Made by a program: the position numbers and the translations under genes
Part shown: positions 3,574 to 63,581 of the stretch, one piece after another
Position numbering within the stretch: position 1 is the stretch's first letter
Layout of the letters: every line of letters begins with the position of its first letter
Notes under the pieces: model-generated
The model's database searches: none
Seen by the model: the letters and a program-made list of their open reading frames with translations, nothing else
Told to the model about the DNA's origin: nothing
Assembly: GCA_963766325.1 (NCBI GenBank)
Contig: CAVXZF010000007.1
Span: forward strand, 93,706 to 157,705
Reading direction: 5' to 3'
Length of the DNA stretch: 64,000 bases
From: an uncultured Actinomycetota bacterium
Lineage (GTDB): Bacteria; Actinomycetota; Actinomycetes; Mycobacteriales; CADCTP01

Positions 3574-6195
3574 GTGACATCGACCGACCTGGCCGCCGAC
3601 CCGACCGGAGTGACCCGGGAGGAGCTGGACCGGCTCGTCGGCGGGGCGCACCACGACCCGCACTCGCTGCTCGGCCTGCACCCGGTGCGGGCCGCCCGGG
3701 CGGTGCCGGAGCGGGCGCCGGTCGCCTCGCCCGGGTCCGGGCAGCAGGCGATCGACACCGCCACCGACCCCACCGCCGCCCAGCCCGCCACCAACGGGGT
3801 CGCGGGTGCGGGCGCCGCCGCGGGTGCGGGCGCCGACACCGAGTCCCCGACCGAGGCCCCGACCGCCCCAGCCGCCCCAGCCGCCCCGACGGACCCGGCC
3901 GCCCAGACCTCCCCAGCCGCCCAGACCTCCCCAGCCGCCCCGACCTCCCCAGCCGCCCCGACGGATCCGGCTGCCCGGACCGCCCCAGCCGCTCCGGCCG
4001 GCGCGGGCGATCCGTCGACCGGCTCGCTGGAAGCGGGCGCCGACCCGGACCCCGGCACCGAGCCCGAGGCTGAGGTCGGCACCCTCGTGCTGCGCACCCT
4101 GCGCCCGGACGCCGGCCGGGTGGTCGCCGTCGTCGGCGACCGGCGGCACGAGCTGGACCGGGTGCACCCCGGCGGCGTGTTCGCCGGCCTGCTGCCCGGT
4201 CCGCCCGCCGACTACCGGCTCGAGGTGACCTACCCGGGCACCGGCGGCGGTCCGGACGAGACGATCACGGTCGACGACGCGTACCGGTGGCTGCCGACGC
4301 TGGGCGAGATCGACCTGCACCTGATCGGCGAGGGCCGGCACGAGCGGCTCTGGGAGGCGCTGGGCGCGCATTTCCGGACGTACGAGACCCCGCACGGGCC
4401 GGTCAGCGGCACCTCCTTCGCGGTGTGGGCGCCGAGTGCGCGGGGCGTCCGGGTCACCGGCGACTTCGACTACTGGCAGCGGCGCGCGTACCCGATGCGC
4501 TCGCTCGGCTCCAGCGGCATCTGGGAGATCTTCGTCCCGGGCGTGGTGCCCGGCGCGAAGTACAAGTTCTCCATCCTCGGCCGGGACGGCCGCTGGCGGG
4601 ACAAGGCCGACCCGCTGGCGTTCCAGACCGAGCGGACCCCGGCGACGGCGTCGGTGGTGCACAGCTCGACCCACCTGTGGTCCGACGACGAGTGGATGGC
4701 CAAGCGCGCGTCCACCCGCTGGCACGCCGCGCCGATGAGCACGTACGAGGTGCACCTCGGCTCCTGGCGCAAGGGCCTCGGCTACCGCGACGCGGCCGAC
4801 CAGCTGGCCGACTACCTGGTCGAGACCGGCTTCACCCACGTCGAGCTGCTGCCGCTGGCCGAGCACCCGTACGACGGGTCCTGGGGTTACCAGGTCACCT
4901 CGTTCTTCGCCCCGACCGCCCGCTTCGGCACCCCGGACGACTTCCGCTACTTCGTCGACCGGATGCACCAGGCCGGCATCGGCGTGATCATGGACTGGGT
5001 GCCCGGGCACTTCCCCAAGGACGAGTGGGCGCTGGCCCGCTTCGACGGCGGCCCGCTGTACGAGCACCCCGACCCGCGCCGCGGCGAGCAGCCGGACTGG
5101 GGCACGCTCGTCTTCGACTTCGGCCGCCGCGAGGTCCGCAACTTCCTGGTCGCGAACGCGCTCTACTGGCTCGAGGAGTTCCACATCGACGGGCTGCGGG
5201 TGGACGCGGTCGCCTCGATGCTCTACCTGGACTACTCCCGGCCGGCCGGGGAGTGGCTGCCCAACCAGTACGGCGGCCGGGAAAACCTGGAGGCCATCGC
5301 CTTCCTGCAGGAGATGAACGCGACCGTCTACCGACGGGTGCCGGGCGCGATCACGATCGCCGAGGAGTCGACCGCCTGGCCGGGCGTCACCCGGCCCACC
5401 CACCTCGGCGGGCTCGGCTTCGGCTTCAAGTGGAACATGGGGTGGATGCACGACACCCTGGACTACGCGTCCAAGGCGCCGATCTACCGGCAGTGGCACC
5501 ACCACCAGATGACCTTCTCGATGATGTACGCGTTCAGCGAGAACTACATGCTCCCGCTGTCGCACGACGAGGTCGTACACGGCAAGAAGTCGCTGCTCGG
5601 CCGGATGCCCGGCGACCACTGGCAGCAGGCGGCCACCCTGCGGGCGCTGTACGCGTACATGTGGGCCCATCCGGGCAAGCAGCTGCTGTTCATGGGCGGC
5701 GAGTTCGGCCAGGGCGCGGAGTGGGCCGACGGCCGGTCGCTGGACTGGTGGCTGCTGGACGACCCGCTGCACGGCGGGCTGCAGCGGCTCGTCGGCGACC
5801 TCAACCAGGCCTACCGGTCCGCCCCGGCGCTGTGGACGCAGGACACCTCGCCGGCCGGCTTCTCCTGGATCGACGCCAACGACGCCAGCAACAACACGTT
5901 CTCCTTCCTGCGCTGGGGCGACGAGGGCTCGGTGCTGGCCTGCGTGGTCAACTTCGCCAGCGTGCCGCACGAGGGCTACCGGCTCGGGCTGCCCCGCGCC
6001 GGCCGCTGGGTCGAGACGGTCAACACCGACGCCACCGTCTACGGCGGCTCCGGGGTGGGCAACATGGGCGAGGTCACCGCCGACCCCCAGCCCTGGCACG
6101 GCCAGCCCGCGTCGGTGCGGCTGCGGGTGCCGCCGCTGGGCGCCCTGTGGCTTCGCTACACCGGTGCGGCCATGCCCGACGGCACGGAGGACTGA
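3574..6195 (+). CDS. glgB: 1,4-alpha-glucan branching enzyme with a ~131-aa Pro/Ala/Thr-rich insertion in the N-terminal domain
   Basis: GH13 motifs [36 protein letters not shown] and [18 protein letters not shown] lies 4-5 nt before GTG 3574. Confidence 0.9.
3865..3990 (+). repeat. In-frame 9/18-bp repeats (gccccagcc; gcccagacctccccagcc) inside glgB
   Basis: Read directly. The repeats encode [37 protein letters not shown]. Confidence 0.85.
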
Positions 6196-7650: not shown

Positions 7651-7673
7651 GAGCCGGCTCCACCAGCCGGCTC
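7651..7673. terminator. Hairpin between the convergent metallopeptidase and thioredoxin-domain genes
   Basis: Perfect 9-bp stem GAGCCGGCT / AGCCGGCTC with loop CCACC. The right arm overlaps the thioredoxin-gene stop codon. Confidence 0.5.
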
Positions 7674-8652
7674 AGTAGAGCGCGCGGGAGAGGTCGCGGC
7701 GGGCCACGGTGACCCGCGGGTCGTCGGTCCCGACCACGCCGAAGAGCTCGACCAGCCGGGTCCGGGCCTGCTCCCGCTCGGCTCCCGCGGTGCGGCGCAC
7801 CGTGCCGAGCAGCCGGCGGAAGGCGCCGTCGACGTCGCCCTCGGCCAGCTCGACGTCGGCCGCGAGCAGCTGGGCGTCCAGGTCGTCGGGGGCGGCGTCG
7901 GCGCGGGCGACCGCGTCGGCCGGCGCGGCGGTGACCCGGCGGAGCAGCTCGACCTCGCGCAGCGCGGCGGCGGCCCGCGGGTGGCCCGGGTCGGCGGCGA
8001 GAATCTGCTGGTAGAGCCGGGCCGCGGTGTCGAAGTCGCCGGCCGCGGTGGCGTCCTCCGCCTCGAGCACCTGCGGGTCGTCTGGCTCCGCGGGCAGCTC
8101 GGCGTCCTCCCCGGGCGGGCCGGCCGGGGCCGCGCCGCTGGTCGCCTCGACCACCGCCTGGACGAACTGGCGGACCTGCGCCTCGGGCAGCGCGCCGGCG
8201 AACTCGCCGAGAACCTGGCCCTGGAAGACCGCCTTGACCGCCGGGATGCTCTGCACCCGCAGCGCCTGGGCCAGCGCCTGGTTGGAGTCCACATCGACCT
8301 TGGCCAGCACCCAGGCGCCGCCGCCCTCGGCGGCCAGCCGCTCCAGCACCGGGGACAGCTGCTTGCACGGCCCGCACCACTCGGCCCACAGGTCGAGGAT
8401 CACCGGGGTGCGGAACGAGCGGTCCAGCACCTCGGCCTGGAAGGTCGTCTCGGTGACGTCGAGCACGGTCACCGGCGCGGCCGGGGCGCCGCCGCCGTCG
8501 GGCGCCTGGGCCTGCGCGGCGGCCTGCGCCTCGGCCCGGTCCCGGGCCTCGGCCCGCGCCTTCAGCGCGGACAGGTCGACCGCGCCGGCGAGCGCGGCGG
8601 ACAGAGCGGGGCTGGGCGCGGGAGCACCCCGCGACGGACGACCAGGCTGCAT
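7672..8652 (-). CDS. Thioredoxin-domain protein with TPR-like C-terminal half (YbbN-like co-chaperone)
   Basis: WAEWCGPCKQL active-site motif followed by a helical repeat region. Same map position as Rv1324 in M. tuberculosis. Confidence 0.8.
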   Translation of the reverse strand: MQPGRPSRGAPAPSPALSAALAGAVDLSALKARAEARDRAEAQAAAQAQAPDGGGAPAAPVTVLDVTETTFQAEVLDRSFRTPVILDLWAEWCGPCKQLSPVLERLAAEGGGAWVLAKVDVDSNQALAQALRVQSIPAVKAVFQGQVLGEFAGALPEAQVRQFVQAVVEATSGAAPAGPPGEDAELPAEPDDPQVLEAEDATAAGDFDTAARLYQQILAADPGHPRAAAALREVELLRRVTAAPADAVARADAAPDDLDAQLLAADVELAEGDVDGAFRRLLGTVRRTAGAEREQARTRLVELFGVVGTDDPRVTVARRDLSRALY

Positions 8653-8710
8653 GTGCCCAGCCTAACCACGCCACCACCCCCGCCGCCGACCCCGCCCCGC
8701 CCCGCCCTCC

Positions 8711-8800
8711 TCCGCCTCCGCCTCCGCCTCCGCCGACTGCGGAGTTCCGCCGCCGACTGAGCAGCTGTAGCTCCTCAGTCGGTGCCGAACTTCTCAGTCG
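8711..8800. repeat. (TCCGCC)4 microsatellite followed by a small two-orientation member of the GACTGA/TCAGTC repeat family (2+2 units, 19-20 bp spacing)
   Basis: GACTG cores at 8735 and 8755. TCAGTC cores at 8775 and 8794. The inner arms CCGACTGAG / CTCAGTCGG are complementary. Confidence 0.85.
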
Positions 8801-8831: not shown

Positions 8832-10508
8832 TCAGAAGCGGGCGGGCTCGGTGTACGACCCCCACTCGTCGCGCAGGGCGCCGCAGATCTCGCCCAGGGT
8901 GGCCTCGGCGCGGGCAGCGGCGAGCATCGGCGGGACCATGTTGGCGTCGGACCGTGCCGCCTCGACCATCGCGGCCAGCGCGGACCGGACCGCGGCGTCG
9001 TCCCGGGCGGCCCGCCGGGCGGCCAGCACCCGGACCTGCTCGCGCTCCACCTCGCCGCTGATCCGCAGGATCTCCAGGTCCTCGCCCTCGCCGCCCGGGT
9101 ACGCGTTGACCCCGACGACCTTCTTGTCGCCCTTCTCCACGGCTTGCTGGTAGCGGAAGGCGGCCTCGGCGATCTCGCCCATGAACCAGCCGTCCTCGAT
9201 GCCGCGCAGGATGCCGGAGGTCATCGAGCCGTCGGTGCCCATGTCCCGGATCCGGGCGAAGATCTCCTCGGCCTGCCGCTCCAGCTCGTCGGTGAGCGCC
9301 TCGACGTACCAGGAGCCGCCGAGCGGGTCGGCGACGTTCATCACGCCGGTCTCCTCGGCGATGACCTGCTGGGTGCGCAGCGCGATCTGGGCGGCCCGCG
9401 CGCTGGGCAGCGCGAGCACCTCGTCGAGCGCGTTGGTGTGCAGCGAGTTGGTGCCGCCGAGCACGGCGGCCAGCGCCTCGACCGCGGTCCGGACGATGTT
9501 GTTGTCCGGCTGCTGCGCGGTCAGCGAGACGCCGGCGGTCTGGGTGTGGAAGCGCAGCCACTGCGCCCGCTCGGTCTTGGCGCCGTAGACGTCGCGCAGC
9601 CAGCGGGCCCAGATCCGCCGGGCGGCACGGAACTTCGCGATCTCCTCGAAGAAGTCGACGTGCGCGTCGAAGAAGAACGACAGCCCGGGCGCGAACTGCT
9701 CGACGTCCAGGCCTCGGGACAGGCCCAGCTCGACGTACCCGAACCCGTCGGCGAGGGTGAACGCGAGCTCCTGCGCGGCGGTCGAGCCAGCCTCCCGGAT
9801 GTGGTAGCCGGAGACCGACAGCGGCTTGTACGCCGGGATCTCGGCCGCGCAGAACTCCATCAGATCGCCGATGAGCCGCAGGTGCGGCTCGGGACCGAAG
9901 AGCCACTCCTTCTGCGCGATGTACTCCTTGAAGATGTCGGTCTGCAGCGTGCCGTCCAGCCCGCGCAGGCCGGTGCCCTGCCGCTCGGCGGCCACCAGAT
10001 ACATGCAGAAAACCGGCACCGCCGGCCCGCTGATCGTCATCGAGGTGGTGACGTCGCCGAGCGGGATGTCGCGGAAGAGCAGGTCCATGTCCGCGGCCGA
10101 GTCGATCGCGACCCCGCAGTGGCCGACCTCGCCCAGGCTGCGCGGGTCGTCGGAGTCGCGGCCCATCAGCGTCGGCATGTCGAAGGCGACCGACAGCCCG
10201 CCGCCGCCCTCGGCCAGGATCATCCGGTAGCGCTCGTTGGTCTGCTCGGCGTTGCCGAAGCCGGCGAACTGCCGGATCGTCCACGGCCGGCCCCGGTAGC
10301 CGGTCGGGTAGAGCCCGCGGGTGAACGGGAACTCCCCCGGCCAGCCGATCCGCTCGAAGCCGGGACCGGCGTCGCCCGGTCCGGTCGGGCCGTAGACCGG
10401 GGCCACCTCGACCCCGGACAGGGTGGTGAAGTCGGCGTCGCGCTTGCGGGCCGCGTCGTAGCGGGCCTGCCAGCGGGCACGCCCGGCGGCGATCTCGTCG
10501 GGTGTCAC
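8832..10508 (-). CDS. icmA: Acyl-CoA mutase large (substrate-binding) subunit, isobutyryl-CoA mutase IcmA-like; no B12-binding domain
   Basis: Mutase TIM-barrel sequence. The specificity positions read [11 protein letters not shown] and [10 protein letters not shown], i.e. Phe and Gln as in IcmA where methylmalonyl-CoA mutase has Tyr and Arg. Confidence 0.7.
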
Positions 10509-10614: not shown

Positions 10615-11901
10615 ATGCAGATCGGCGTGTTCTCGGTGGGCGATGTCACACCCGACCCCACCACGGGCCGGGAGCCGACCGAGGCCGAGCGGATCAAGGC
10701 GATGGTGGCCGTCGCGGTCAAGGCCGAGGAGGTCGGGCTCGACGTCTTCGCCACCGGCGAGCACCACAACCCGCCGTTCGTGCCCTCCTCGCCGACCACC
10801 CTGCTCGGCTTCGTGGCCGCACGCACGTCGCGGCTGCTGCTGTCCACGGCCACCACGCTGATCACCACCAACGACCCGGTGAAGATCGCCGAGGACTACG
10901 CGATGCTGCAGCACCTGGCCGACGGCCGGGTCGACCTCATGCTCGGCCGCGGCAACACCGGCCCCGTCTACCCGTGGTTCGGCCAGGACATCCGGACGGG
11001 CATCCCGCTGGCCGTGGAGAACTACGCGCTGCTGCGCCGGCTGTGGCGGGAGGACGTGGTCGACTGGGAGGGCCGATTCCGCACCCCGCTGCAGGGCTTC
11101 ACCTCGACCCCGCGGCCGCTGGACGGGGTGCCGCCGTTCGTCTGGCACGCCTCGATCCGGTCACCGGAGATCGCCGAGCAGGCGGCGTACTACGGCGACG
11201 GGTTCTTCCACAACAACATCTTCTGGCCGCCGTCGCACGTGCGGCGGATGGTCTCGCTGTACCGCCGGCGGTACGAGCACTACGGGCACGGCCCGGCCGC
11301 GCACGCGACCGTCGGGCTGGGCGGGCAGGTCTTCGTCCGCAAGAGCTCGCAGGACGCGGTGCGCGAGTTCCGGCCGTACTTCGACCGGGCGCCCGTGTAC
11401 GGGCACGGCCCGTCCCTGGAGGACTACATGGCCGAGACCCCGCTGACCGTGGGCAGCCCGCAGCAGGTCATCGACCGCACCCTCGGCTTCCGCGAGCTGG
11501 TCGGCGACTACCAGCGGCAGCTCTTCCTGGTCGACCACGCCGGACTGCCGCTGAAGACAGTGCTGGAGCAGCTGGACATCCTCGGCGAGGAGGTCGTGCC
11601 GGTGCTGCGGCGGGAGTTCGCCGCGCGGCGGCCGGCCGGCGTGCCGGAGGACCCGCCGACCCACGCCTCCCTGCTCGCCGACCAGCTGGCCGGGGCGGCC
11701 GAGCCGACCAGGTCGGTCCGCGCCACCGAGCCCGCCGGGACCGCCGGCGTGACCGTGGCCGGGACCGCCGGGACCGCCGGCGTGGCCGGGACCGTCGGGA
11801 CCGCCGGGACCGCCGGCGTGGCCGGGACCGTCGGCTTGGCCGGGACGACCGGCGGGGCCGGGACCGCCGTGGCGGTCGAGCCGGCCGGGGTGGCGCGATG
11901 A
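10615..11901 (+). CDS. LLM-class (luciferase-like) flavin-dependent oxidoreductase with repetitive Ala/Gly/Thr/Val C-terminal tail
   Basis: LLM fold sequence (MQIGVFSVGD.., GEHHNPPF). AAGGAG lies 6 nt before ATG 10615. The stop overlaps the next start (ATGA). Confidence 0.75.
   Translation: MQIGVFSVGDVTPDPTTGREPTEAERIKAMVAVAVKAEEVGLDVFATGEHHNPPFVPSSPTTLLGFVAARTSRLLLSTATTLITTNDPVKIAEDYAMLQHLADGRVDLMLGRGNTGPVYPWFGQDIRTGIPLAVENYALLRRLWREDVVDWEGRFRTPLQGFTSTPRPLDGVPPFVWHASIRSPEIAEQAAYYGDGFFHNNIFWPPSHVRRMVSLYRRRYEHYGHGPAAHATVGLGGQVFVRKSSQDAVREFRPYFDRAPVYGHGPSLEDYMAETPLTVGSPQQVIDRTLGFRELVGDYQRQLFLVDHAGLPLKTVLEQLDILGEEVVPVLRREFAARRPAGVPEDPPTHASLLADQLAGAAEPTRSVRATEPAGTAGVTVAGTAGTAGVAGTVGTAGTAGVAGTVGLAGTTGGAGTAVAVEPAGVAR
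11734..11871 (+). repeat. In-frame 9-bp repeat (gccgggacc and variants) at the 3' end of the LLM oxidoreductase gene
   Basis: Read directly. The repeats encode AGTAGVTVAGTAGTAGVAGTVGTAGTAGVAGTVGLAGTTGGAGTA. Confidence 0.85.
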
Positions 11902-12518
11902 CCGCCCGCCGGATCGCGGTGGTCACCGCCGGCACCGGCCGGCCGTCGGCGACCCGGCTGCTGGCCGACCGGCTGGCCGCGGCCACCGGCCAGGCGCTGG
12001 CCGAGCGCGGCCTGGCCGCCGAGGTCGAGGTGGTCGAGCTGCGCGAGCACGCCCGGGGGCTGGCCGACCACCTGGTCACCGGTTTCCCCGGCGGCGCGCT
12101 GCGGGCGGCCGTGCAGACCGTCACCGGCGCGGACGCGCTGATCGCGGTCACCCCGGTGTACGCGGCGTCGTACAGCGGGCTGTTCAAGACCTTCTTCGAC
12201 CTGCTCGACGATGACGCGCTGGCCGGCCTGCCGGTGCTGCTCGCCGCCACCGGCGGCACCGCGCGGCACTCCCTGGTGCTCGAGCACGCGATGCGCCCGC
12301 TCTTCAGCCACCTGCGCGCCCTCCCGGTGCCGACCGCGGTCTTCGCCGCGCCCGAGGACTGGGCCGGCGGCGGCGGCGACCGCACCGACCCCGGGCTGGA
12401 CCGGCGGATCGCCCGGGCCGCCGGCCAGCTGGCCGACCTGCTCGCCGGCCGCCGCCCGGAGCGCCCCGCCGACCCCTTCGCCGACCCCGTCCCCTTCGCC
12501 CAGCTCCTCACCGGCTGA
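11898..12518 (+). CDS. NAD(P)H-dependent FMN reductase (partner of the LLM oxidoreductase)
   Basis: RIAVVTAGTGRPSATRLLA and VTPVYAASYSGLFKTFFDLL are typical of this family. ATG 11898 lies in an ATGA overlap. This is only the 3' end of the 1124-aa track ORF 9144-12518. Confidence 0.7.
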   Translation: MTARRIAVVTAGTGRPSATRLLADRLAAATGQALAERGLAAEVEVVELREHARGLADHLVTGFPGGALRAAVQTVTGADALIAVTPVYAASYSGLFKTFFDLLDDDALAGLPVLLAATGGTARHSLVLEHAMRPLFSHLRALPVPTAVFAAPEDWAGGGGDRTDPGLDRRIARAAGQLADLLAGRRPERPADPFADPVPFAQLLTG

Positions 12519-12829
12519 CGGACCACCACCGCGACTGACACGTTCCCACCGCGACTGACACGTTCCCACCGCGACTGACGGCGCTGCCGCCGTCAGCCGC
12601 GGGCGGGCGCCGTCAGCCGCGGGCGGGCGCCGTCAATCGCGGGCGGGCGCCGTCAATCGCGGGCGGGCGCCGTCAATCGCGGGCGGGCGCCGTCAATCGC
12701 GGACGGAGAGCGTCAGCCGCGAGTGGGGGGCGTCAGCCGCGAGTGGGAGGCGTCAGCCGCGGACGCAGAGCGTCAGCCGCGGGTGGGGGCGTCAGCCGCG
12801 AGTGGGGGGCGTCAGGCGGTGGAGGGGGT
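12514..12829. repeat. 20-bp-period tandem array: 4 units GCGRCTGAC.. then 12 units CGTCAGCCGCG+9 nt in the opposite orientation
   Basis: Read directly. The period is exactly 20 bp except for one 19-bp unit. The array fills the whole spacer between the convergent genes. Confidence 0.95.
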
Positions 12830-13354
12830 GACGGTCTCGGAGGGGGGTTTCTGAGCGAAGTCGCCGGCCTCGGACCGGACCGAACGCAGCGCGGTGAAGA
12901 CCGCCTCCCGGCTGTCCGCCTCCAGCCCGGACAGCCCGAAGTCGATCGCCATCAGGTCGGCGGTCGCCGCCTCGGCCACCACCCGGCCCTGCTCGGTGAT
13001 CGAGGCGAGCACGCCCCGCCGGTCCGCCGGGTTGGACCGCCGCTCGACCAGCCCGGCCGCGGCCAGTCGGGTGATCGCGTTGGTCACGCTGGTCGGGTGG
13101 ACCATGAGCCGACTGCCGATCACCTTCAGCGGCAGCACGCCGGCGGTGCTGAAGTGCAGCAGCACCAGCGCCTCGTACCGGGCGAAGGTGAGTCCGTGCC
13201 GCCGCAGCACCTCGTCGTACCGTGCGAGGAGGATCTGCTGGACCCGCATGACCGATGTGGCCACCCGCATGGCGGAGGCCGGCCCCCAGGTCCGCTCCCA
13301 GATCTCCCCCGCGCGTTCGATCGGGTCGAACGGCAGATCCAGCGGCTTGGGCAC
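12812..13354 (-). CDS. MarR-family transcriptional regulator
   Basis: Winged-helix pattern LTFARYEALVLL...MVHPTSVTNAITRLAAAGLVERRSNPADRR. GTG start. Confidence 0.8.
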   Translation of the reverse strand: MPKPLDLPFDPIERAGEIWERTWGPASAMRVATSVMRVQQILLARYDEVLRRHGLTFARYEALVLLHFSTAGVLPLKVIGSRLMVHPTSVTNAITRLAAAGLVERRSNPADRRGVLASITEQGRVVAEAATADLMAIDFGLSGLEADSREAVFTALRSVRSEAGDFAQKPPSETVTPSTA

Positions 13355-13465: not shown

Positions 13466-15394
<1,929 letters not shown>

Positions 15395-15412
15395 GCTAGC
15401 CGGGGGTCGACC

Positions 15413-15450
15413 GGGCCCGGGGAGGCGTGGCAGCGGACCTCCCCGGGCCC
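15413..15450. terminator. Bidirectional intrinsic-terminator-like hairpin between chitinase and meaB
   Basis: Perfect 13-bp GC-rich stem GGGCCCGGGGAGG / CCTCCCCGGGCCC with a 12-nt loop. Confidence 0.6.
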
Positions 15451-15481
15451 TCCCACGTCCGCGCCCGACCCCGGCGGGCCG

Positions 15482-16486
15482 TCAGGCGGTGAGCTCGGCG
15501 ACCAGGTCGTCGGCGGCCGCGTACGGGTCGAGCTCGCCGGCGACGACCCGGGCGGCCAGCGCGTCCAGGGCGGCCGACCCGTGCAGGTCGCCCATCCGGT
15601 CGCGCAGGGCGGCCACCGCGATCGCCTCCACCTCGGCGGCGGCGCGGGCGAGCCGGCGGCGGTCGCCCTCCCCGCTGGCGGCCAGCCACTCGGCGTGCTT
15701 GTCCAGGGCGTCCAGCAGCTCGTCGATCCCCTCGCCCTTGGCCGCGACGGTCCGCACGATCGGCGGCCGCCAGGCGCCGGGCTCGGAGTGCCGGCCGCCG
15801 AGCGACTGCATGGCCCGCAGGTCCCGTACGGTCTGGTCGGCGCCGTCCCGGTCGGCCTTGTTGACCACCAGCACGTCGGCCACCTCGAGGATGCCGGCCT
15901 TGGCGGCCTGGATGCCGTCGCCCATGCCGGGGGCGAGCAGCACCAGCGTGGTGTCCGCGGTGGAGGCGACCTGGACCTCGGCCTGGCCGACCCCGACGGT
16001 CTCCACCAGCACCACGTCGCAGCCGGCGGCGTCGAGCACCCGGACCGCCTGCGGGGTGGCCCAGGCGAGCCCGCCCAGGTGGCCGCGGGAGGCCATCGAG
16101 CGGATGAAGACGCCGGCGTCGGTGGCGTGGTCCTGCATCCGGACCCGGTCGCCGAGCAGCGCCCCGCCGGAGAACGGCGAGGACGGGTCGACGGCGAGGA
16201 CCCCGACCCGGGCGCCCTGCTTGCGCAGCGCGGTCACCAGCACCGCGGTGGAGGTCGACTTGCCCACCCCGGGCGAGCCGGTGAGGCCGAGCACCCGCGC
16301 CCGGCCGGCGTGCGGGGTGAGCGCGGCGGCCACCTCGCGCAGCGCCGGGGAAGCGTCCTCGACCAACGAGATCAGCCGCGCGACCGACCGCGGGTCGCCC
16401 TCACGCGCCCGCGCCACCAGCGCAGCCACGTCCACCCGGCGGTTGCGCCGACCGGCCGGCGCCGCCGCGGGCGCACCTTCGCTCAC
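15482..16486 (-). CDS. meaB: Methylmalonyl-CoA mutase-associated G-protein chaperone (MeaB/ArgK)
   Basis: P-loop GSPGVGKST and VVNKADRDGA (NKxD). Confidence 0.85.
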   Translation of the reverse strand: MSEGAPAAAPAGRRNRRVDVAALVARAREGDPRSVARLISLVEDASPALREVAAALTPHAGRARVLGLTGSPGVGKSTSTAVLVTALRKQGARVGVLAVDPSSPFSGGALLGDRVRMQDHATDAGVFIRSMASRGHLGGLAWATPQAVRVLDAAGCDVVLVETVGVGQAEVQVASTADTTLVLLAPGMGDGIQAAKAGILEVADVLVVNKADRDGADQTVRDLRAMQSLGGRHSEPGAWRPPIVRTVAAKGEGIDELLDALDKHAEWLAASGEGDRRRLARAAAEVEAIAVAALRDRMGDLHGSAALDALAARVVAGELDPYAAADDLVAELTA

Positions 16487-16504
16487 CGGCAGGACGCTAC
16501 CGAC

Positions 16505-17692
16505 TCACGGGGCCGGGACGCGGAGGATGAGCGCGTCGCCCTGCCCGCCGCCGCCGCACAGCCCGGCGGCGCCGGTGCCGCCGCCGCGCCGGCGCAGCTC
16601 CAGCACGGTGTCCAGCACGATCCGGGCACCGCTCATCCCGATGGGGTGACCGAGGGCGATGGCCCCGCCGTTGGGGTTGACCTTGTCCGGGCCGAGGCCG
16701 AGCTCGCGCATCGACTGGATCCCGACGGCGGCGAACGCCTCGTTGATCTCGACCACGTCGAGGTCCTCGGTGGTCAGCCCCTCCCGCTCGAGCGCCTTGC
16801 GGATCGCGTTGGCCGGCTGGGACTGCAGCGAGTTGTCCGGGCCGGCGACCACGCCGTGGGCGCCGATCTCGGCCAGGATCGGGGCGCCCAGCCGCTCGGC
16901 CGCGGCCCGCGACATCACCACGACCGCGCAGGCGCCGTCGGAAATCTGCGAGGACGTGCCGGCGGTGATGGTCCCGTCCTTGGCGAACGCGGGCCGGAGC
17001 CGGGACAGCGACTCGACGGTGGTGTCGGCGCGGATGCCCTCGTCCTCGCGGAACTCGATCGGGTCGCCCTTCCGCTGCGGGATCCGCACCGGGACGATCT
17101 CCTCGTCGAACAGCCCGTTTTTCTGGGCCGCGGCGGCCCGCTGGTGCGAGCGCGCGGCGAACTCGTCCTGCTCCTCGCGGCTGATGTCGAGCCCGGCGTT
17201 GTGCCGCTCGGTCGACTCGCCCATCGCGACGTGGTCGAAGGCGTCGGTGAGCCCGTCGTGCGCCATCGCGTCGAGCAGCTGGACCGACCCGTACTTGAAG
17301 CCCTGCCGGGAGCCGGGCAGCAGGTGCGGCGCGTTGGTCATCGACTCCATGCCGCCGGCGACCACGACCTCGAACTCGCCGGCCCCGATCAGCTGGTCGG
17401 CCAGCGCGATGGCGTCCAGCCCGGACAGGCAGACCTTGTTGATCAGCAGCGACGGGACGGTCATCGGGATGCCGCCGGCGACCGCGGCCTGCCGGGCGGG
17501 CATCTGCCCGGCGCCGGCCTGCAGCACCTGGCCGAGGATGACGTAGTCGACCTGCTCGCCGGTGATGCCGGCCCGCTCCAGCGCCGCCTCGATCGCGATG
17601 CCGCCGAGATCGGCGGCCGAGAAGTCCTTGAGCGAGCCCATCAGCCGCCCCATCGGGGTCCGGGCACCGCTGACGATCACCGATCCGGGCAT
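16505..17692 (-). CDS. Acetyl-CoA C-acetyltransferase (thiolase II)
   Basis: Thiolase sequence throughout, e.g. [12 protein letters not shown] (active-site Cys) and the C-terminal [14 protein letters not shown]. Confidence 0.9.
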
Positions 17693-21207: not shown

Positions 21208-22212
21208 ATGGGGGCCATGGATCGCCGCGAGCAGCAGACCGAGCTCCTGCCCCTGCTGGAGGGGGCCAGCACCTTCGACGTCGTCCTGCGCGGGTACGAC
21301 CGGCATCAGGTGCACGAGCACGTGGAGCGGCTGGAGGCCGACCTGCGCATCGCCGTCGCCGAGCGGGACGCGGTGGCGGCCCGCAGCGCCGAGCTGGCCG
21401 GCCAGGTCGCCGCCGCCCACGCCGAGATCGACGCCCTGCACGCGCGGCTGGACCAGGCGTCCGCCGCGCCCGCACTGGAGGATGTGAGCGACCGGATCCG
21501 GTCGATGCTCTCGCTGGCCCAGCAGGAGGCGGCCGAGATCCGCAACCGCGCCCAGCACGAGGCGACCGAGCTGCAGTCCCGCTTCGACATGCTCGACCAG
21601 GAGGTCGTCTCCCGGCTCAGCTCGGCCGAGCGGAGCTCGGCGGAGAAGCTGACGGCGGCCGAGCAGCGGGCCGGCGCGGTGCTGGCCGAGGCCGAGCGCA
21701 GGGCGTCGGCGCTGGTGGCGGACGCCGAGCAGCGCTCGGCGGCACTGCTGGCGGAGGCCGAGCACCGCTCGGCCTCGCTGACCGAGGAGGCCGAGCGGCT
21801 GTCCACGGAGGCGCGCACCAGGGCGGCCACGATCACCGCGGAGGCGGACGAGCGGCGCCAGCAGGCCGACGCCGAAGCGGAGTCCAAGCGGACCCAGGCC
21901 AGCGAGGACTTCGAGATCGCGCTGCGGCTGCGGCGGACCCAGGAGGCGGAGGCCGACGAGAGCCGCCGGGCCGAGGCCCGCCGGGAGGCCGAGCGGCAGC
22001 GGGCGGCCGCGGCCAAGGCGGCCGAGGACCATGTGAGCGCGGCCCGGGCCGAGGCCGAGCGGATCGTCGGCGAGGCCCACGCGCGGGCCCAGGAGCTGGC
22101 CACCGTGCGGACGACCGTGCTGAGCCAGCTGTCCGCGGTGCGCAGCATCCTGGACCGCGTGCCGGCGGCCGCGTCGGCGTCGCTGGAGGAGTGGCCGGCC
22201 CGCGAGCGCTGA
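21208..22212 (+). CDS. Coiled-coil protein with DivIVA-type N-terminal motif (FilP/Scy-like cytoskeletal family)
   Basis: FDVVLRGYDRHQVHEHVERLEADL followed by ~300 aa of Ala/Glu/Arg heptad-like repeats (AEAERRASALVADAEQRSAALLAEAEHRSASL). ATG 21217 is an alternative start. Confidence 0.6.
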   Translation: MGAMDRREQQTELLPLLEGASTFDVVLRGYDRHQVHEHVERLEADLRIAVAERDAVAARSAELAGQVAAAHAEIDALHARLDQASAAPALEDVSDRIRSMLSLAQQEAAEIRNRAQHEATELQSRFDMLDQEVVSRLSSAERSSAEKLTAAEQRAGAVLAEAERRASALVADAEQRSAALLAEAEHRSASLTEEAERLSTEARTRAATITAEADERRQQADAEAESKRTQASEDFEIALRLRRTQEAEADESRRAEARREAERQRAAAAKAAEDHVSAARAEAERIVGEAHARAQELATVRTTVLSQLSAVRSILDRVPAAASASLEEWPARER

Positions 22213-22304: not shown

Positions 22305-23843
22305 GTGAGCGACGACGGTCCGGCCGACCGGGTGAGGACCGGGGTCCGGAAGGCGACGGCGGCGGCGCAGCGGGCGGCGGGTGCCGCCCGCCAGCGGCTG
22401 CGCGCGGCCGTCTTCGTGCCGGAGCCGCCGCCCGAGCCGCGGCCGAGGCGCCTGCCGACCGGTGCGGCCGGCGCCGCGACCGACGCGGCCGGGCACCGCG
22501 AGGCGGCCGGGCACCGCGACAACACCGCCGGACACCGCGACAACACCGCCGGACACCGCGACAACACCGCCGGACACCGCGACAACACCGCCGGGCTCGG
22601 CGAGGCGGCCGGGCACCGGGACCGGGCGGCCGGGCACCGGGACGGGGCCGGGCAGGCCCTCGAGGTCGCCCGGGCCGCCGGCGTGGAGACCGGGGAGGCC
22701 CGGGACGCGGCGATGCGGGGGGTGGGGACGTTCGACGGCGACCCGGTGCTGGACGAGAAGGTCCGCCACGAGGAAGCCGGCGTCGACGCGGACAACCCGT
22801 TCGGGCGGCCAGGCCGGCCGGGCAACCGGTTCTCCCCGTTCCGGGTCGGCTTCGCCTTCACCACCGGCGCGGGCGTGGCGTACCTGCTCTACCAGGCGCT
22901 CATGAGCGCGCGCTCGGTGCTGGTGCTCGTGCTGGTGGCGGCGTTCCTGGCCATCGGGCTCAACCCGATGGTGAGCCGGCTGGAGCGGATGGGCCTGCGC
23001 CGCGGTGGCGCGGTCGGGATCGTCTTCCTCGGCGTGCTCGCCTTCTTCGCCGCGTTCGGGTACGCGGTGCTCCCCCCGGTCGTGACCCAGGTCGCCAACT
23101 TCGTCGAGGCGCTGCCCGGTTACGTACGCGACCTCCAGGCGAACCCGACCGTCGCCGACCTGGACCGGCGCTTCGGGCTGGTCGACCGGCTCAACGACTA
23201 CGTCACCGGCGACCTGGGCCGGCAGGCCGCGGGCAACATCGTGAGCATCGGGCAGCAGCTGGCGGGCATCGTCTTCAAGGGCCTGACCGTCCTCATCCTC
23301 ACCCTCTACTTCCTGTCCTCGTTCAACGCGATCAAGGAGACGGCGTACCGGCTGATCCCCCGCTCGCGGCGGGCCCGGGTGACGCTGATCGGCGACGAGA
23401 TCCTCGGCCGGGTGGGCGGCTACGTGGCCGGCGCGGTGGTGGTCGCGCTGATCGCCGGCACCGCGACGCTGGTCTGGGTGAGCGCGCTGGGCATCCCGTA
23501 CCCGCTGGCGCTGGCGCTCATCGTGGCGCTCACCGACGTCATCCCGCTGATCGGCGCGACCATCGGCGCGGTGCTCGTGACCGCGGTGGCCTTCTTCGTC
23601 TCGCTGCCGGTCGGGATCGCCACCGGGATCTTCTTCATCGTCTACCAGCAAGTGGAAAACTACCTGGTCTACCCGCGGGTGATGAGCCGGTCGGTGGACG
23701 TCAATCCGGCAGCGGCCATCGTCGGCGCACTCGTCGGCGGTACCCTGCTCGGGTTCGTGGGGGCGCTACTGGCGGTGCCGGCGACGGCGGCGATACAGCT
23801 CATCCTGCGAGAGGTCCTGGTCCCGCGCCAGGACGCACAGTGA
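22305..23843 (+). CDS. AI-2E family transporter (PerM/UPF0118) with ~170-aa N-terminal extension carrying AGHRDNT heptad repeats
   Basis: Eight predicted TM segments and AI-2E-like sequence from aa ~190. GGGAGG lies 6 nt before GTG 22305. A later start (ATG near 22714) cannot be excluded. Confidence 0.7.
   Translation: MSDDGPADRVRTGVRKATAAAQRAAGAARQRLRAAVFVPEPPPEPRPRRLPTGAAGAATDAAGHREAAGHRDNTAGHRDNTAGHRDNTAGHRDNTAGLGEAAGHRDRAAGHRDGAGQALEVARAAGVETGEARDAAMRGVGTFDGDPVLDEKVRHEEAGVDADNPFGRPGRPGNRFSPFRVGFAFTTGAGVAYLLYQALMSARSVLVLVLVAAFLAIGLNPMVSRLERMGLRRGGAVGIVFLGVLAFFAAFGYAVLPPVVTQVANFVEALPGYVRDLQANPTVADLDRRFGLVDRLNDYVTGDLGRQAAGNIVSIGQQLAGIVFKGLTVLILTLYFLSSFNAIKETAYRLIPRSRRARVTLIGDEILGRVGGYVAGAVVVALIAGTATLVWVSALGIPYPLALALIVALTDVIPLIGATIGAVLVTAVAFFVSLPVGIATGIFFIVYQQVENYLVYPRVMSRSVDVNPAAAIVGALVGGTLLGFVGALLAVPATAAIQLILREVLVPRQDAQ
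22488..22649 (+). repeat. In-frame 21-bp (and 18-bp) tandem repeat encoding AGHR(D/E)xx units; three consecutive copies are identical (22527-22589)
   Basis: gccggacaccgcgacaacacc occurs three times perfectly and a fourth time with one change. Degenerate copies flank these. Confidence 0.9.
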
Positions 23844-23871: not shown

Positions 23872-24852
23872 ATGGGGATCATGTCTGACCGCACCGACCT
23901 GAGCTACATGGCCGACATGAGCATGAGCCACAACTTCGACGTGGCGCTGCGCGGCTACGACCGGCGGCAGGTCGACGACTACCTTTCCCAGCTGGAGAGC
24001 GAGCTCGCCACCCTGCGGCACGAGCGGGAGTCGGCCGGCGACCGGGTCGGGATGCTCGAGCAGCGGCTGGAGGAGCTGCAGATCGAGCTGCAGACCGCCC
24101 AGCGCAAGGTCGCCGAGTTCGAGCCGTCGTACGCGGGCCTCGGCGCCCGGGTGGAGAACATCCTCCGCCTCGCCGAGGAGGAGGCCATGAGCCTGCGCAC
24201 CGAGGCCGGTGCGCACGGCGACCGGGTCCGCGCCTCGGCCGAGGAGGACGCCAAGCGGGTCCGGGCCGAGGCCGAGCGGGAGGCGCGGGACATCGTCGGC
24301 GCCGCCGACCGGGAGGCCGGCCAGCGCCGGGCCGCGGCGATGAACGAGGCCGAGGCGCTGCGCTCCGAGGCCGGCAGGGACGCGGCCGCGGTCCGGGCCG
24401 AGGCGGCCAGCGAGCTGGAGGAGGCCCGGGCCAAGGCGGCCCAGGCGGCCAAGGACTTCGAGACCACCCTGCACCGCCGCCGGGACCAGGCCGAGCAGGA
24501 GCTGTCGGCCCGGCTGACCGAGGTGGAGCGCCGGCTCACCGAGACCAACGAGACGGCCGAGCAGATCAAGCGGGAGGCCGAGGCGCACCGGGCGGAGACC
24601 GAGCGGCGGTCCGCGCAGATCCTGGACACCGCCCGCCGGGAGGCCGAGGCGGTGGTCACCGACGCGACCGCGAAGGCGAGCCGGCAGAAGTCCGAGGTGG
24701 AGCGGGAGCTGGCCACGCTGGTCCGCCGCCGCGACAGCGTGCAGGCCCAGCTGCAGAACGTCCGCGAGATGCTCGCCACCATGACCGGCGGCTCGGTCGG
24801 CGGCGAGCAGGAGCCGGACGCGGCCGAGCCCGCTGCCCCGGCGCGCGACTGA
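23872..24852 (+). CDS. Coiled-coil protein with DivIVA-type N-terminal motif (FilP-like), paralogue of 21208-22212
   Basis: FDVALRGYDRRQVDDYLSQLESEL followed by Ala/Glu/Arg coiled-coil repeats. ATG 23881 is an alternative start. Confidence 0.6.
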   Translation: MGIMSDRTDLSYMADMSMSHNFDVALRGYDRRQVDDYLSQLESELATLRHERESAGDRVGMLEQRLEELQIELQTAQRKVAEFEPSYAGLGARVENILRLAEEEAMSLRTEAGAHGDRVRASAEEDAKRVRAEAEREARDIVGAADREAGQRRAAAMNEAEALRSEAGRDAAAVRAEAASELEEARAKAAQAAKDFETTLHRRRDQAEQELSARLTEVERRLTETNETAEQIKREAEAHRAETERRSAQILDTARREAEAVVTDATAKASRQKSEVERELATLVRRRDSVQAQLQNVREMLATMTGGSVGGEQEPDAAEPAAPARD

Positions 24853-25040
24853 CGGATCGCCGCCGCGGCTGACGGATCGCCGCCGCGACTGACGGACCCA
24901 GCGCCGTCAGTCGCGATCGCGCGGCGTCAGTCGCGATCGCGCGGCGTCAGTCGCGATCGCGCGGCGTCAGTCGCGATCGCGGGAGGTCAGTCACCGAGCC
25001 GCGGCGTCAGTCACGGAGCCGCGGCGTCAGTCGGGGGCGG
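24845..25040. repeat. 20-bp-period tandem array: 3 units GCGRCTGACGGATCGCCGCC then 7 units CGTCAGTCGCGATCGCGCGG in the opposite orientation
   Basis: Read directly. The central perfect inverted repeat is 24884-24895 / 24904-24915. Confidence 0.95.
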
Positions 25041-25980
25041 CTCCGGTGAGCTGGTCCAGCGCGGCGAGGTCGTCGGGGGAGGGTTCCCAGTCGCCGGCGC
25101 GGGCGTTGGCCCGGACCTGGTCCGATGAGGTCGCACCGGCGATCACCGAGGCGACGGCGGGCTGGGCGGCGAGCCCGCCGATCGCGACGTCGATCATGCC
25201 CAGGCCGCGGTCGCGGGCGTACGCGTCCAGCCCCTCGAGCACGTCCCACGGGGCGGCGTCGTACAGGTCGCGCTTGCGGTCGGCGATCCGGGTGCCGGCC
25301 GGCGGCTCCTCGCCGCGCCGGTACTTCCCGGTCAGCAGCCCGTTGGCCAGCGGGAAGAACGGCAGCAGGCCGACCCCGTACGCCTCGCAGGCCGGCACCA
25401 GCTCGGCCTCGACCCGGCGGTCGAGCAGGCTGTACTCGTTCTGCGCGCTGACGAATCGCTCCGCGCCCAGCCCGGCGGCGACGTGGTCGGCCTGCGCGAC
25501 CTGCCAGCCGGCGAAGTTGGACGAGCCGACGTAGCGCACCTTGCCGGCCCGGACCAGCTCGTCCAGCGCGGCCAGCGTCTCGCCGACCGGGGTGAGCCCG
25601 TCGGGCCGGTGGTACTGGTACAGGTCGATGTGGTCGGTGCGCAGCCGGCGCAGCGACGCCTCCACCGCGGTCCGGATGTAGCGCCGCGACCCGCGGGCGC
25701 CCCAGTCGGGCCCGTTGACCCCGCGCATGTCCATGCCGAACTTGGTGGCCAGCACCACCTCGTCCCGCCGCCCGTCGAGCACCTCGCCGAGGATCTCCTC
25801 GGACTGCCCGGGATGGCCGCCGTACGTGTCCGCGACGTCGAGCAGGGTGATCCCGGCGTCCAGGGCGGCGTCGAGGACCTTGCGGGTGCCGGCGACGTCG
25901 AGGCTGCGACCGAGGTTGTTGCAGCCGAGCCCGACCACCGAGACGGTCAGGCCGGAGCGGCCGAGGGGGCGGTAGCGCAC
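25027..25980 (-). CDS. Aldo/keto reductase
   Basis: AKR family sequence (MRYRPLGRSGLTVSVVGLGCNNLG, IDLYQYHRPD, VRYVGSSNF). Confidence 0.85.
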   Translation of the reverse strand: MRYRPLGRSGLTVSVVGLGCNNLGRSLDVAGTRKVLDAALDAGITLLDVADTYGGHPGQSEEILGEVLDGRRDEVVLATKFGMDMRGVNGPDWGARGSRRYIRTAVEASLRRLRTDHIDLYQYHRPDGLTPVGETLAALDELVRAGKVRYVGSSNFAGWQVAQADHVAAGLGAERFVSAQNEYSLLDRRVEAELVPACEAYGVGLLPFFPLANGLLTGKYRRGEEPPAGTRIADRKRDLYDAAPWDVLEGLDAYARDRGLGMIDVAIGGLAAQPAVASVIAGATSSDQVRANARAGDWEPSPDDLAALDQLTGAAPD

Positions 25981-35195: not shown

Positions 35196-35214
35196 CGCCG
35201 CTGCCGGCGGTCAG
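35192..35214. terminator. Short hairpin whose arms contain the two convergent stop codons (DUF885 gene TGA and nucS TGA)
   Basis: CTGAC-GCCG-ctgc-CGGC-g-GTCAG: 5+4 bp with one bulge. Confidence 0.4.
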
Positions 35215-39311: not shown

Positions 39312-39406
39312 TGTGATCGGTCACCCGGCGGGGCCGTCAGGCGAGCACCCGGCGAGGGCGTCAGGCGAGCACCCGGCGGGGCCGTCAGGCGAGCACGGTG
39401 CCGCGG
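39312..39406. repeat. 24-bp tandem repeat (about 3.5 copies) CGTCAGGCGAGCACCCGGCGGGGC; the last copy is the 3' end and stop of the STAS gene
   Basis: Read directly. Copies start at 39335, 39359 and 39383. Confidence 0.9.
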
Positions 39407-39699
39407 CGCTCCACCACGATGACCCGGTCCAGCCGGGTCAGCGCGAGCAGCCGGGCGACCCGGGGCACGGCGTCGACCAGCACCAGCTCGCGACCCTGCA
39501 GCCGGGCTCGCCGGTGGGCCGCGACCAGGACGCCGAGACCGGTCGCGTCGAGCAGCTCGACCCCGGACAGGTCCACCACCAGCCGGCCGGATCCGCGGGT
39601 GAGCGCCTCGTGCAGCGCCTCGCGCGCCGCCGCCGCTCCCCGCGCGTCGAGCCGGCCGACCAGCTCGACCCCACCGTCCTGCGTCACGTTCGCTCGCAT
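39385..39699 (-). CDS. STAS-domain anti-sigma-factor antagonist
   Basis: LVVDLSGVELLDATGLGVLVAAHRRARLQGRELVLV pattern. GGGAGG lies 6 nt before ATG 39699. The track start 39738 is less likely. Confidence 0.7.
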   Translation of the reverse strand: MRANVTQDGGVELVGRLDARGAAAAREALHEALTRGSGRLVVDLSGVELLDATGLGVLVAAHRRARLQGRELVLVDAVPRVARLLALTRLDRVIVVERRGTVLA

Positions 39700-39851
39700 G
39701 GCGTCCCTCCCCCGCGCTAACGCCGGTACTGAGCACACATGATCGGGCGCTGATACGTCGCGTCCTCGCAGGGATCGTCATCGGATCGTCACCTGGGTGA
39801 CCGTCCGTGTTCGGCAGGCCCGTCGGCCGCGGGCAGTGCCAGACTGGACAC

Positions 39852-63276: not shown

Positions 63277-63581
63277 CCACGGCCGAGCAACGTCACGCAC
63301 GCCGACTGACGGCTCCCGGCCTCCGCTGACGGCACCAGCGCCACGGCCGAGCAACGTCACGCACCCGCGACTGACGGCTCCCGCTCGCCAGTGACGGCAC
63401 CAGCGACGTCAGCCGCGGACGCCCGACGTCAGTCGCGGACGCCCCGACGTCAGCCGCGGACGCCCGACGTCAGCCGCGGACGCCCGCCGTCAGTCGCGGA
63501 CGCCCGACGTCAGTCGCGGACGCCCGACGTCAGTCGGGGGCGCCGGCAGTCAGGGGGGAGCCACGGGGGCGGGTCAGGCGG
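63277..63581. repeat. Composite repeat: 2 copies of a ~64-bp unit (each carrying two CTGACGG/GTGACGG cores) followed by ~9 units of CGTCAGYCGCGGACGCCCGA (20-21 bp)
   Basis: Read directly. Lies between the hom stop (63574) and the thrC start (63247). Confidence 0.95.

Follow-up and report, generated by a model that had tools for sequence, protein, structure and literature searches.

The spacer between an FMN-reductase gene and a MarR-family gene in a 64,000-nucleotide stretch of DNA from an uncultured actinobacterium (contig CAVXZF010000007.1; the whole stretch is referred to here as the window) is filled by an array of 4 forward and 12 reverse 20-bp units (array 1, 12514-12829), which we tentatively regard as one copy of a lineage-specific family of dispersed hairpin minisatellites that sit on the 3' ends of genes and are similar to repetitive extragenic palindromic (REP) elements and bacterial interspersed mosaic elements (BIMEs) or to mycobacterial interspersed repetitive units (MIRUs). 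The basic element is an inverted pair of ~20-bp units, CCGCGRCTGACGG plus 8 nt and CCGTCAGYCGCGG plus 8 nt, placed around a fixed TGA-N14-TCA centre. Each of its arms is a tandem array, the unit number and the variable 8-9 nt of which differ between related genomes; the core, the geometry of the centre and the complementarity of the arms are retained across these genomes, and the flanking genes take their stop codons, and in some cases their final few codons as well, from the outermost units. The host lineage comprises uncultured high-GC Actinobacteria of the order Mycobacteriales, by the labels of the nearest metagenome-assembled genomes (MAGs): the nearest named relatives of the window are MAGs labelled Mycobacteriales and Jatrophihabitantaceae, and the nearest cultured ones are Geodermatophilaceae, with Blastococcus and Geodermatophilus being 78-80% identical to the window for thrC.

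The 4+12 layout of array 1, with both stop codons held in its outermost units, had been described in an initial annotation of this DNA, and was borne out by reading of the sequence and by Tandem Repeats Finder, which delimits a left block (12526-12579, period 20, 100% matches) and a right block (12588-12815, period 20, 11.4 copies, 86%). A reading of 12300-13000 found the spacer to be periodic over its whole length, from the TGA (12516-12518) to the TCA (12812-12814). The period had been called strict, which holds for nearly all of the unit spacings, these being 20 bp throughout except for a single step of 19 bp. Each unit carries the core CCGCGRCTGACG(G). The stop codon of the FMN-reductase gene is the TGA at 12516-12518, that of the MarR gene is the complement of 12812-12814, and the final reverse unit encodes the last five codons of MarR along with its stop (TPSTA*). 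Within the array there are homogeneous sub-blocks (two copies of cgtcagccgcgggcgggcgc, four consecutive cgtcaAT units, and units of the gagtgggggg type), in agreement with the stepwise local amplification that had been proposed. The inverted repeat at the junction of the arms is real, with its extent having been understated as 11 of 12 complementary positions: it is a 14-bp stem, complementary at 13 of 14 positions, closed by a 4-nt loop, with folding energies of -28 and -33.8 kcal/mol on the two strands (z -4.3 and -5.6).

The core pattern is not a product of chance. In the window, which has a G+C content of 74%, CGTCAGYCGCG occurs 22 times against an expectation of 0.85 +/- 0.93, a count that none of 100 shuffles reaches; all 22 matches lie within the arrays at 12.5, 24.8 and 63.3 kb, and exact 11-mer self-matches at a 20-bp offset are confined to these same three arrays. 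The earlier view of the core as the conserved part of a dispersed element tied to gene 3' ends is upheld, with a shorter list of members than had been given: the loci at 24844-25044 (array 2) and 63277-63581 (array 3) are true members and 8735-8800 is a variant one, and two further candidates do not belong. The first of these, 35191-35214, was ruled out as an ordinary short hairpin having no core (z -0.38). The second, 39312-39406, consists of three copies of a one-orientation 24-bp unit (CGTCAGGCGAGCACCCGGCGGGGC) across the stop codon of a STAS-domain gene (39385-39738, minus strand), the unit being composed of the last 14 nt of the gene including its stop and of 10 nt of its 3' flank; it has only CGTCAG in common with the 20-bp family, and is evidence that tandem duplication across stop codons has happened repeatedly in this genome, separately from that family.

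Array 3 is located between the co-directional genes hom (63574 to beyond 64000, minus strand) and thrC (62198-63247, minus strand; the product is a PALP enzyme, threonine synthase). Its reverse arm alone abuts a stop codon, and its forward arm, the TGAs of which are at 63307, 63327, 63372 and 63392, faces the start of thrC and is associated with no gene end. The statement that the arrays lie always at gene ends is thus correct for at least one side of each of them, and fails for the forward arm, which exists without a gene end both here and in L070, one of the metagenome loci described below. Because of these arms, the two-orientation hairpin is intrinsic to the element, and is not simply what results where two gene ends meet. 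For the same reason, and because the core and the centre are shared, independent duplication of the end of each gene was rejected as the sole explanation of the arms.

The consensus of 89 units from 27 arms, aligned on their TGA, is CCGCGACTGACGg followed by 8-9 poorly conserved nucleotides, with conservation of 82-97% at the flanking core positions and 49-76% at the variable ones. The invariance of the TGA in this set is partly a matter of construction; by direct reading, none of the 39 units in the three window arrays lacks it, and it is lost only in decayed units of two relatives (L092 and L093). The distance from the innermost TGA to the innermost TCA is 17 nt (TGACGG-N8-CCGTCA, i.e. TGA-N14-TCA) in 11 of 12 two-orientation arrays, around an 8-nt centre that is loosely conserved as C(A/G)CC(A/G)GCG. 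The energies of the central hairpins range from -19 to -34 kcal/mol across the arrays, and whole arrays fold more stably than shuffled sequence (z -3.3 to -6.6). An alignment of 12 such hairpins has 84.7% of its cells paired and five pairs altered on both sides, giving a covariation score of 0.131 as compared with 0.058 in shuffles (4 of 500 reach the observed score).

The comparison of orthologous junctions, which were located via their flanking proteins and hence without bias for repeats, allows the history of individual arrays to be followed. The unit-number polymorphism that the initial annotation had proposed to look for was found: a homologous array is present at the MarR junction of L087 (MarR ~88-89% identical) with 6 MarR-side units against 12 in the window, and at this junction it is smaller in L089 and missing from L001 and L088. 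The inner 71 nt are identical between the window and L087 at 65 positions (91.5%), the centre of the L087 array being the reverse complement of that of the window with one mismatch. Since the third codon positions of MarR are only 77% identical between the same two sequences, the array is better conserved than near-neutral sites. In both, the outermost unit gives MarR a C-terminal extension, TPSTA* in the window and TPSAD* in L087. The array of L089 and L090 is small (2-3 + 4 units); its core is a variant one, CGACTGAG / CTCAGTCGCG, and here too both genes stop within the outermost units. In L001-L006, which form the outgroup by MarR identity, there is no array and the convergent stops overlap as CTAG, the L001 MarR ending in ETVG*; the junction in L088 is rearranged and likewise has no array. 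No target-site duplication is seen between the empty site (L001) and the filled ones (window, L089).

At the aldo/keto reductase junction, the arrays form a series of decay, from 3+7 units in the window and ~7+4 in L092 to a degenerate 2+2 in L093 and a 1+1 relic in L091. The two arms of the L092 array have changed alike (CGCGAGTGACGG / CCGTCACTCGCG), and such concordant change is also seen in L089. At the hom-thrC junction, no array is present in the two closest relatives. The family is therefore old enough to be common to lineages with differences at a quarter of their synonymous-type sites, and its individual arrays expand, contract, decay or are absent. Independent assemblies from JGI, ENA, NCBI and Logan hold homologous arrays with variant units and the same [forward]n-[reverse]m architecture, which answers the concern, also raised initially, that the arrays could be an artefact. 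The end of the L087 contig (about 1040-1062) coincides with an array centre and that of L086 (10534-10562) lies 28 bp past MarR, which suggests that metagenome assemblies often break at the arrays and that contig collections consequently contain too few of them.

The same layout was sought more widely by a pattern scan of 185,579 species genomes, which returned single two-unit matches only; approximately 17 of the 24 matches are 2-3-unit tandem duplications on the stop codons of genes, in Streptomyces, Agromyces, Sphaerisporangium, Pseudonocardia and other taxa. An identical scan of metagenome contigs returned 55 loci, seven of which (L032, L040, L050, L053, L055, L070 and L084; 76-77% G+C) have forward units, centre and reverse units in the order seen in the window, with the flanking open reading frames (ORFs) ending in the outermost units in most of them. 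Multi-unit two-orientation arrays were confined in these scans to related high-GC contigs; it has to be noted that both scans demanded a 20-bp period together with this core, and so do not show either of them to be special outside the lineage. The junctions occupied by the arrays are convergent in 7 cases, co-directional in 3-4 (L070 among them) and divergent in none. Viral contigs gave no match to the tandem pattern and none to the hairpin pattern. Among other Actinomycetota, one-orientation 20-bp arrays with identical flanks differ in unit number, L023 having 3 units against 2 in L042 and L054, and L018 having 2 against 4 in L034. An array of another kind was observed in L064 and L067 (metagenome contigs Ga0181518 and Ga0181538), in which five 20-bp units (CGTCAGCCGCGCCCGCGCAT) carry on the opposite strand a TGA followed by an ATG per unit (GCTGACGATGCGCG); here a stop-start junction forms the duplicated unit, in a MIRU-like arrangement.

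In the account that we favour, the arms would lengthen and shorten by replication slippage or unequal exchange, in the manner of a variable-number tandem repeat (VNTR). Because there is a TGA in every unit, in the sense of the incoming gene, and the 20-bp period rotates the frame, the element might occupy, and expand in, convergent junctions of zero length while leaving the ORFs intact. Small deletions that fuse an ORF to the array would be tolerated, as the ORF would still stop at once, and it is to such tolerated fusions that the position of the stops in the outermost units could be due, so that site-specific integration would not be needed. In the transcript, the arms are expected to form GC-rich hairpins, one or several, with the stop codon inside them. 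By analogy with REP elements, such a hairpin probably acts at the RNA 3' end, as a terminator or roadblock lacking a U-tract and/or as a guard against 3' exonucleases; an influence on how the upstream ORF terminates, which has been reported for the REP elements of E. coli, is also conceivable. Conservation of the array above the level of third codon positions, together with the changes in the arms, which are often compensated, argues for some constraint.

Several observations weigh against this account. Array 3 lies inside the normally co-transcribed hom-thrC pair, where a strong terminator would cut off thrC. No U-tract terminator accompanies the arrays: there are no terminator-like sites in 12300-13000 and no T-run follows any of the hairpins, and the canonical intrinsic terminator was accordingly rejected, the hairpin being present and the U-tract absent. 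Mycobacterial RNA polymerase has been reported to require a U-tract, and termination is for both of these reasons not assured. The covariation of the central hairpins would fit RNA or DNA pairing, concerted evolution of inverted copies, or a protein site used in both orientations equally well. There is no mutual complementarity between the variable 8-9 nt of one arm and those of the other, so that the arm-to-arm complementarity of ~75% is essentially that of the cores, and since only the cores and the centre pair, 12 units far exceed what a hairpin needs. No single array is indispensable, as arrays are absent in the close relatives L001, L091 and L094, and neither a transposase nor any other machinery for seeding was found in the 64 kb of source sequence.

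The most serious alternative, which we nevertheless think unlikely, is that the arrays are a neutral by-product, in that duplications spanning a stop codon would be the only ones with a length that is not a multiple of three to be tolerated in a gene-dense genome, and slippage would then build arrays from them without any dedicated element or function. This would explain why many unrelated Actinomycetota, and a Methylobacterium too, have one-orientation arrays of 2-5 units at their stop codons, why arrays in close relatives are absent or decayed, and why a case such as the threefold 24-bp duplication at the end of the STAS-domain gene (39312-39406) exists at all. The sequence itself is also an unremarkable one for a gene to end on: no stop context in the window is more frequent than cTGAc(g), and CGC-GAC-TGA, which reads Arg-Asp-stop in preferred codons, natively terminates the DivIVA-like gene of the window, L091, L092 and L093 and serves as the ordinary, solitary end of another gene in L001 (position 1193). 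What such a process does not account for is the recurrence of an identical 12-13-nt core with the TGA-N14-TCA centre at at least 12 loci in several genomes, or the presence of forward arms where no gene ends (array 3, L070). At the first locus, moreover, the core took the place of a CTAG overlap that has no such sequence, and both the conservation of the window/L087 array beyond third codon positions and the concordant change of the two arms in L092 and L089 speak against it. Assembly error in a repeat-rich MAG, in contrast, is extremely improbable, even though the source appears to be a MAG-type contig of 1.43 Mb and the short-read contigs of relatives break at the arrays (L086, L087), given that homologous arrays with variant units are found in independent assemblies, that the copies carry ordered point variants and sub-blocks and are not collapsed identical repeats, and that the ORFs on either side terminate as they should, within the outermost units.

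Two further alternatives concern the units themselves. According to one, which we consider improbable, a DNA-binding protein polymerizes on the 11-13-bp cores, spaced two helical turns (20-21 bp) apart, and the array is a nucleoid-organizing site or a roadblock, as has been proposed by Subirana and Messeguer for 20-21-nt constant-size repeats (PMC8161180). Such a site would be expected to have a period near 2 x 10.5 bp and to combine a conserved core with a spacer that is free to vary, as is the case here; it occurs in both orientations, which co-vary between genomes, and the variable parts of the arms being non-complementary, a long helix is not what is kept. The proposal comes without a candidate protein, some units measure 15, 18, 19, 21 or 22 bp, the unit numbers vary widely and the arrays are dispensable in relatives, and a hairpin is the simpler explanation both for the conserved centre and for the convergent order of the arms, in which the forward one always comes first in the 5' to 3' direction. 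According to the other, which is highly improbable, the trait under selection is a trap of stop codons, TGA being offered in three frames after a gene so as to limit extensions by read-through or frameshift in a genome of 74% GC, where out-of-frame stops are rare. All 39 units in the window arrays do keep the TGA while neighbouring core positions vary, its frames in array 1 rotate 0, 2, 1 (the presence of TGA in all three frames had been pointed out in the initial annotation), and the first stop in every frame comes within 95 nt at the arrays as against up to 1309 nt at convergent junctions without them. The rotation is, however, an arithmetic outcome of the 20-bp period, and the shorter read-in distances are not evidence of selection; the invariance of the TGA is partly how the units were recognized, three units would suffice where arrays reach 12, most gene ends in the window have no array, the forward units of array 3 keep their TGA although they meet no incoming ORF, and decayed units in L092 and L093 lose it.

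A bolder version of the hairpin family can also be conceived, in which the element is a module for gene ends: a stop-bearing hairpin cassette would be seeded at stop codons by sequence-specific machinery, either an enzyme of the REP-associated tyrosine transposase (RAYT) kind or a binder of the 13-bp core phased by two helical turns, and would be selected as an insulator of packed or overlapping convergent genes through all-frame stops and an RNA/DNA roadblock. We regard it as quite improbable. If it were true, a mechanistic explanation would be at hand for 20-21-nt constant-size repeats across bacteria.

A number of better-known types of repeat were rejected as identities of the arrays. The conclusion that they are neither CRISPR nor a cargo-carrying transposon stood. 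A CRISPR locus has repeats of 23-55 bp alternating with unique spacers of similar length, a leader and cas genes; here the core has 11-13 bp, the 8-9-nt variable part recurs in adjacent units, the units run in both directions, and the genes alongside encode FMN_red, MarR, a DivIVA-like protein, aldo/keto reductase, Hom and ThrC. Iterons and partition centromeres, which are 11-22-bp direct repeats next to a rep or par gene, are at odds with the many chromosomal loci between housekeeping genes, none of 10 flanking genes being of the rep or par type by Pfam. Nor do the arrays look like a typical miniature inverted-repeat transposable element, which has a defined length, terminal inverted repeats and target-site duplications: their arms do act as inverted repeats, but the copies vary in length from 40 to 320 bp. 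A C-rich Rho-utilization tract formed by the arms would fit the base counts of array 1 and fails for arrays 2 and 3. At gathering thresholds, Rfam leaves the arrays unmatched, and its sole match in the window is an L31-Actinobacteria ribosomal protein leader (RF03158; 58078-58133, minus strand, 52 bits, E = 9e-8).

The coordinates of the arrays and of the genes flanking array 1 are collected in the table below; the gene map of the window is a rough one, made from third-position GC and, for the flanking genes, Pfam.

Table. Repeat arms, hairpins and array 1 flanking genes in the window
Feature	Coordinates	Strand	Description
NADPH-dependent FMN reductase gene (Pfam FMN_red)	11898..12518	+	stop in first forward unit
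Array 1 forward arm	12514..12590	+	4 units of ~20 bp, ..GCGRCTGAC + variable part; TGA 12516, 12536, 12556, 12576
Array 1 central hairpin	12570..12601	.	cgcgactgacggcg-ctgc-cgccgtcagccgcg; TGA-N14-TCA geometry
Array 1 reverse arm	12591..12829	-	12 units, CGTCAGCCGCG or CGTCAATCGCG + 9 nt; TCA 12593...12812
MarR-family regulator gene	12812..13354	-	stop in last reverse unit
Array 2 forward arm	24844..24903	+	3 units (CGCGRCTGACGGATCGCCGC); first TGA 24850-24852 = stop of DivIVA-domain gene (23872-24852)
Array 2 reverse arm	24904..25044	-	7 units (CGTCAGTCGCGATCGCGCGG + variants); TCA 25027-25029 = stop of aldo/keto reductase gene (25027-25980)
Array 3 forward arm	63277..63405	+	65-bp higher-order repeat x2.1, two forward units per copy
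Array 3 reverse arm	63406..63581	-	7 regular + 2 degenerate units; TCA 63574-63576 = stop of homoserine dehydrogenase gene
Mini-array	8735..8800	.	2 forward + 2 reverse units, variant core CCGACTGAG / CTCAGTCGG; hairpin -28.4 kcal/mol

The mini-array lies downstream of a methylmalonyl-CoA mutase gene (8832-10508, minus strand), and is adjoined on its upstream side by a low-complexity CGCCTC / CCGCCCC run (8669-8735) located between that gene and a thioredoxin/TPR_20 gene (7672-8652, minus strand). The mutase in L001 is followed by what appears to be a defence-island-like insertion (14017-17363) comprising TIR_2, HATPase_c_4 and a PhdYeFM/PIN toxin-antitoxin pair, and at the matching junction the window has only the mini-array. 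In L096, the site that array 3 occupies in the window, between hom and thrC, holds an unannotated gene for 380 amino acids without a Pfam match (3785-4927), which is an insertion on the opposite strand, with its stop directly abutting that of hom (TAGTCA). Upstream of array 1, the stop codon of a luciferase-like gene (10615-11901) overlaps the start of the FMN-reductase gene; a 36-bp coding tandem repeat (11732-11866) gives the product of the luciferase-like gene an (A/V)GT-rich C-terminal tail (...AGTAGVTVAGTAGTAGVAGTVGTAGTAGVAGTVG...), which is lacking from the L001 orthologue (357 aa vs 428 aa). Long in-frame tandem repeats are also present within other ORFs (59792-60176, 22438-22654, 3851-4000, 21648-21796 and 47900-47973), with periods of 15/30/63, 21/42, 18/36, 33 and 18 bp, respectively; all of these are multiples of 3, unlike the period of the 20-bp intergenic arrays.

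If the arrays are indeed copies of a dispersed hairpin family, the 20-21-nt repeats that have so far been described statistically would gain a concrete anatomy, with inverted tandem arms, a stop-bearing core, a fixed hairpin and a position at gene ends. It would also follow that a repeat can colonize and enlarge convergent junctions of zero length without harm to the genes, rewriting their terminal codons as it does so (TPSTA* of MarR). In practical terms, the arrays break short-read assemblies, as in L086 and L087, and can mislead gene callers, because long antisense ORFs cross them; they would be suitable as VNTR markers for this uncultured soil actinobacterial lineage.

With regard to known systems, a literature search by core sequence strings found no relevant paper, and searches on REP/RAYT in actinobacteria and on REP with trans-translation found nothing usable. 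The initial annotation had taken the arrays for something other than a described element, which is not supported, since a class of 20-21-nt repeats has already been described and REP/BIME and MIRU are close analogues. Subirana and Messeguer reported non-coding tandem repeats of 20-21 (20-23) nt in bacteria that are constant in size and variable in sequence; these are defined only by size statistics, form many arrays per genome with a short signal in every unit, and are specific to species or lineages, Actinobacteria included (PMC8161180, citing J Bacteriol 2020;202:e00229-20). The arrays described here share every feature stated for that class: the size, the presence of several arrays differing in sequence, a signal (CCGCGRCTGACG) and lineage specificity. 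PMC8161180 mentions no stop codons, gene ends, two-orientation layout or central hairpin, and it is in these that the arrays differ. The 21-nt repeats of Bacillus weihaiensis have the conserved signal TCGCGG (PMC8161180, Table 2), which is also contained in the array core (GTCAGTCGCGG), possibly by coincidence. Another parallel is provided by the TAACTGA direct repeats of Beggiatoaceae, which, according to the abstract of the source, are abundant in intergenic regions, form many sets per genome and possibly have a post-transcriptional role (PMC4679880). These likewise contain a stop codon (..CTGA) in an abundant intergenic direct repeat; their unit, however, has 7 nt, the repeats are almost exclusively direct, and the phylum and the sequence are different.

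I-shaped bidirectional terminators without a U-tract resemble the arrays in being GC-rich stem-loops that separate convergent genes, are able to form in either transcript and have stops in or next to the stem. They differ in that the arms of the arrays are multiplied 3-12 times and the stem sequence recurs at many loci, also within hom-thrC. Closer in genomic behaviour are the MIRUs, which are said to be interspersed intergenic tandem repeats of actinobacteria that are oriented with the genes and whose ends overlap stop and start codons; their copy number reportedly varies among strains, and some copies are reported to lie within operons. The arrays have in common with MIRU/VNTR loci the overlap with stop codons, the orientation with the genes, the varying copy number (12 vs 6) and an actinobacterial host, and array 3 is placed between hom and thrC much as intra-operon MIRU copies are. 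In contrast, the MIRU has a unit of 40-100 bp in one orientation, belongs to the M. tuberculosis complex, lacks an inverted second arm and a central hairpin, and is unrelated in sequence to the two-armed 20-bp arrays.

In its working, the element is most like REP/BIME/REPIN, by virtue of its position, hairpin, clusters and lineage specificity. Like these, the arrays are short, GC-rich, extragenic dispersed repeats that favour 3' ends and convergent junctions and are clustered in varying numbers; they occur in both orientations, are predicted to form hairpins in mRNA and have a lineage-specific sequence. REP elements are reported to serve in the protection of mRNA 3' ends and in termination, and a REP hairpin within ~15 nt of the stop codon is reported to down-regulate the upstream ORF. 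The differences lie in the unit, which in REP is an imperfect palindrome of 20-40 bp with a GTAG head and in the arrays is not self-complementary and pairs only with the opposite arm; in the order, BIMEs alternating in orientation where the arrays run head-to-tail within each arm and switch orientation once; and in the stop codon, which in the arrays is part of the conserved core. The kind of element is thus known among interspersed intergenic repeats, and what appears, on the sequences compared, to be new is its two-orientation, hairpin-centred layout, for which a role as a hairpin at RNA 3' ends is tentatively proposed.

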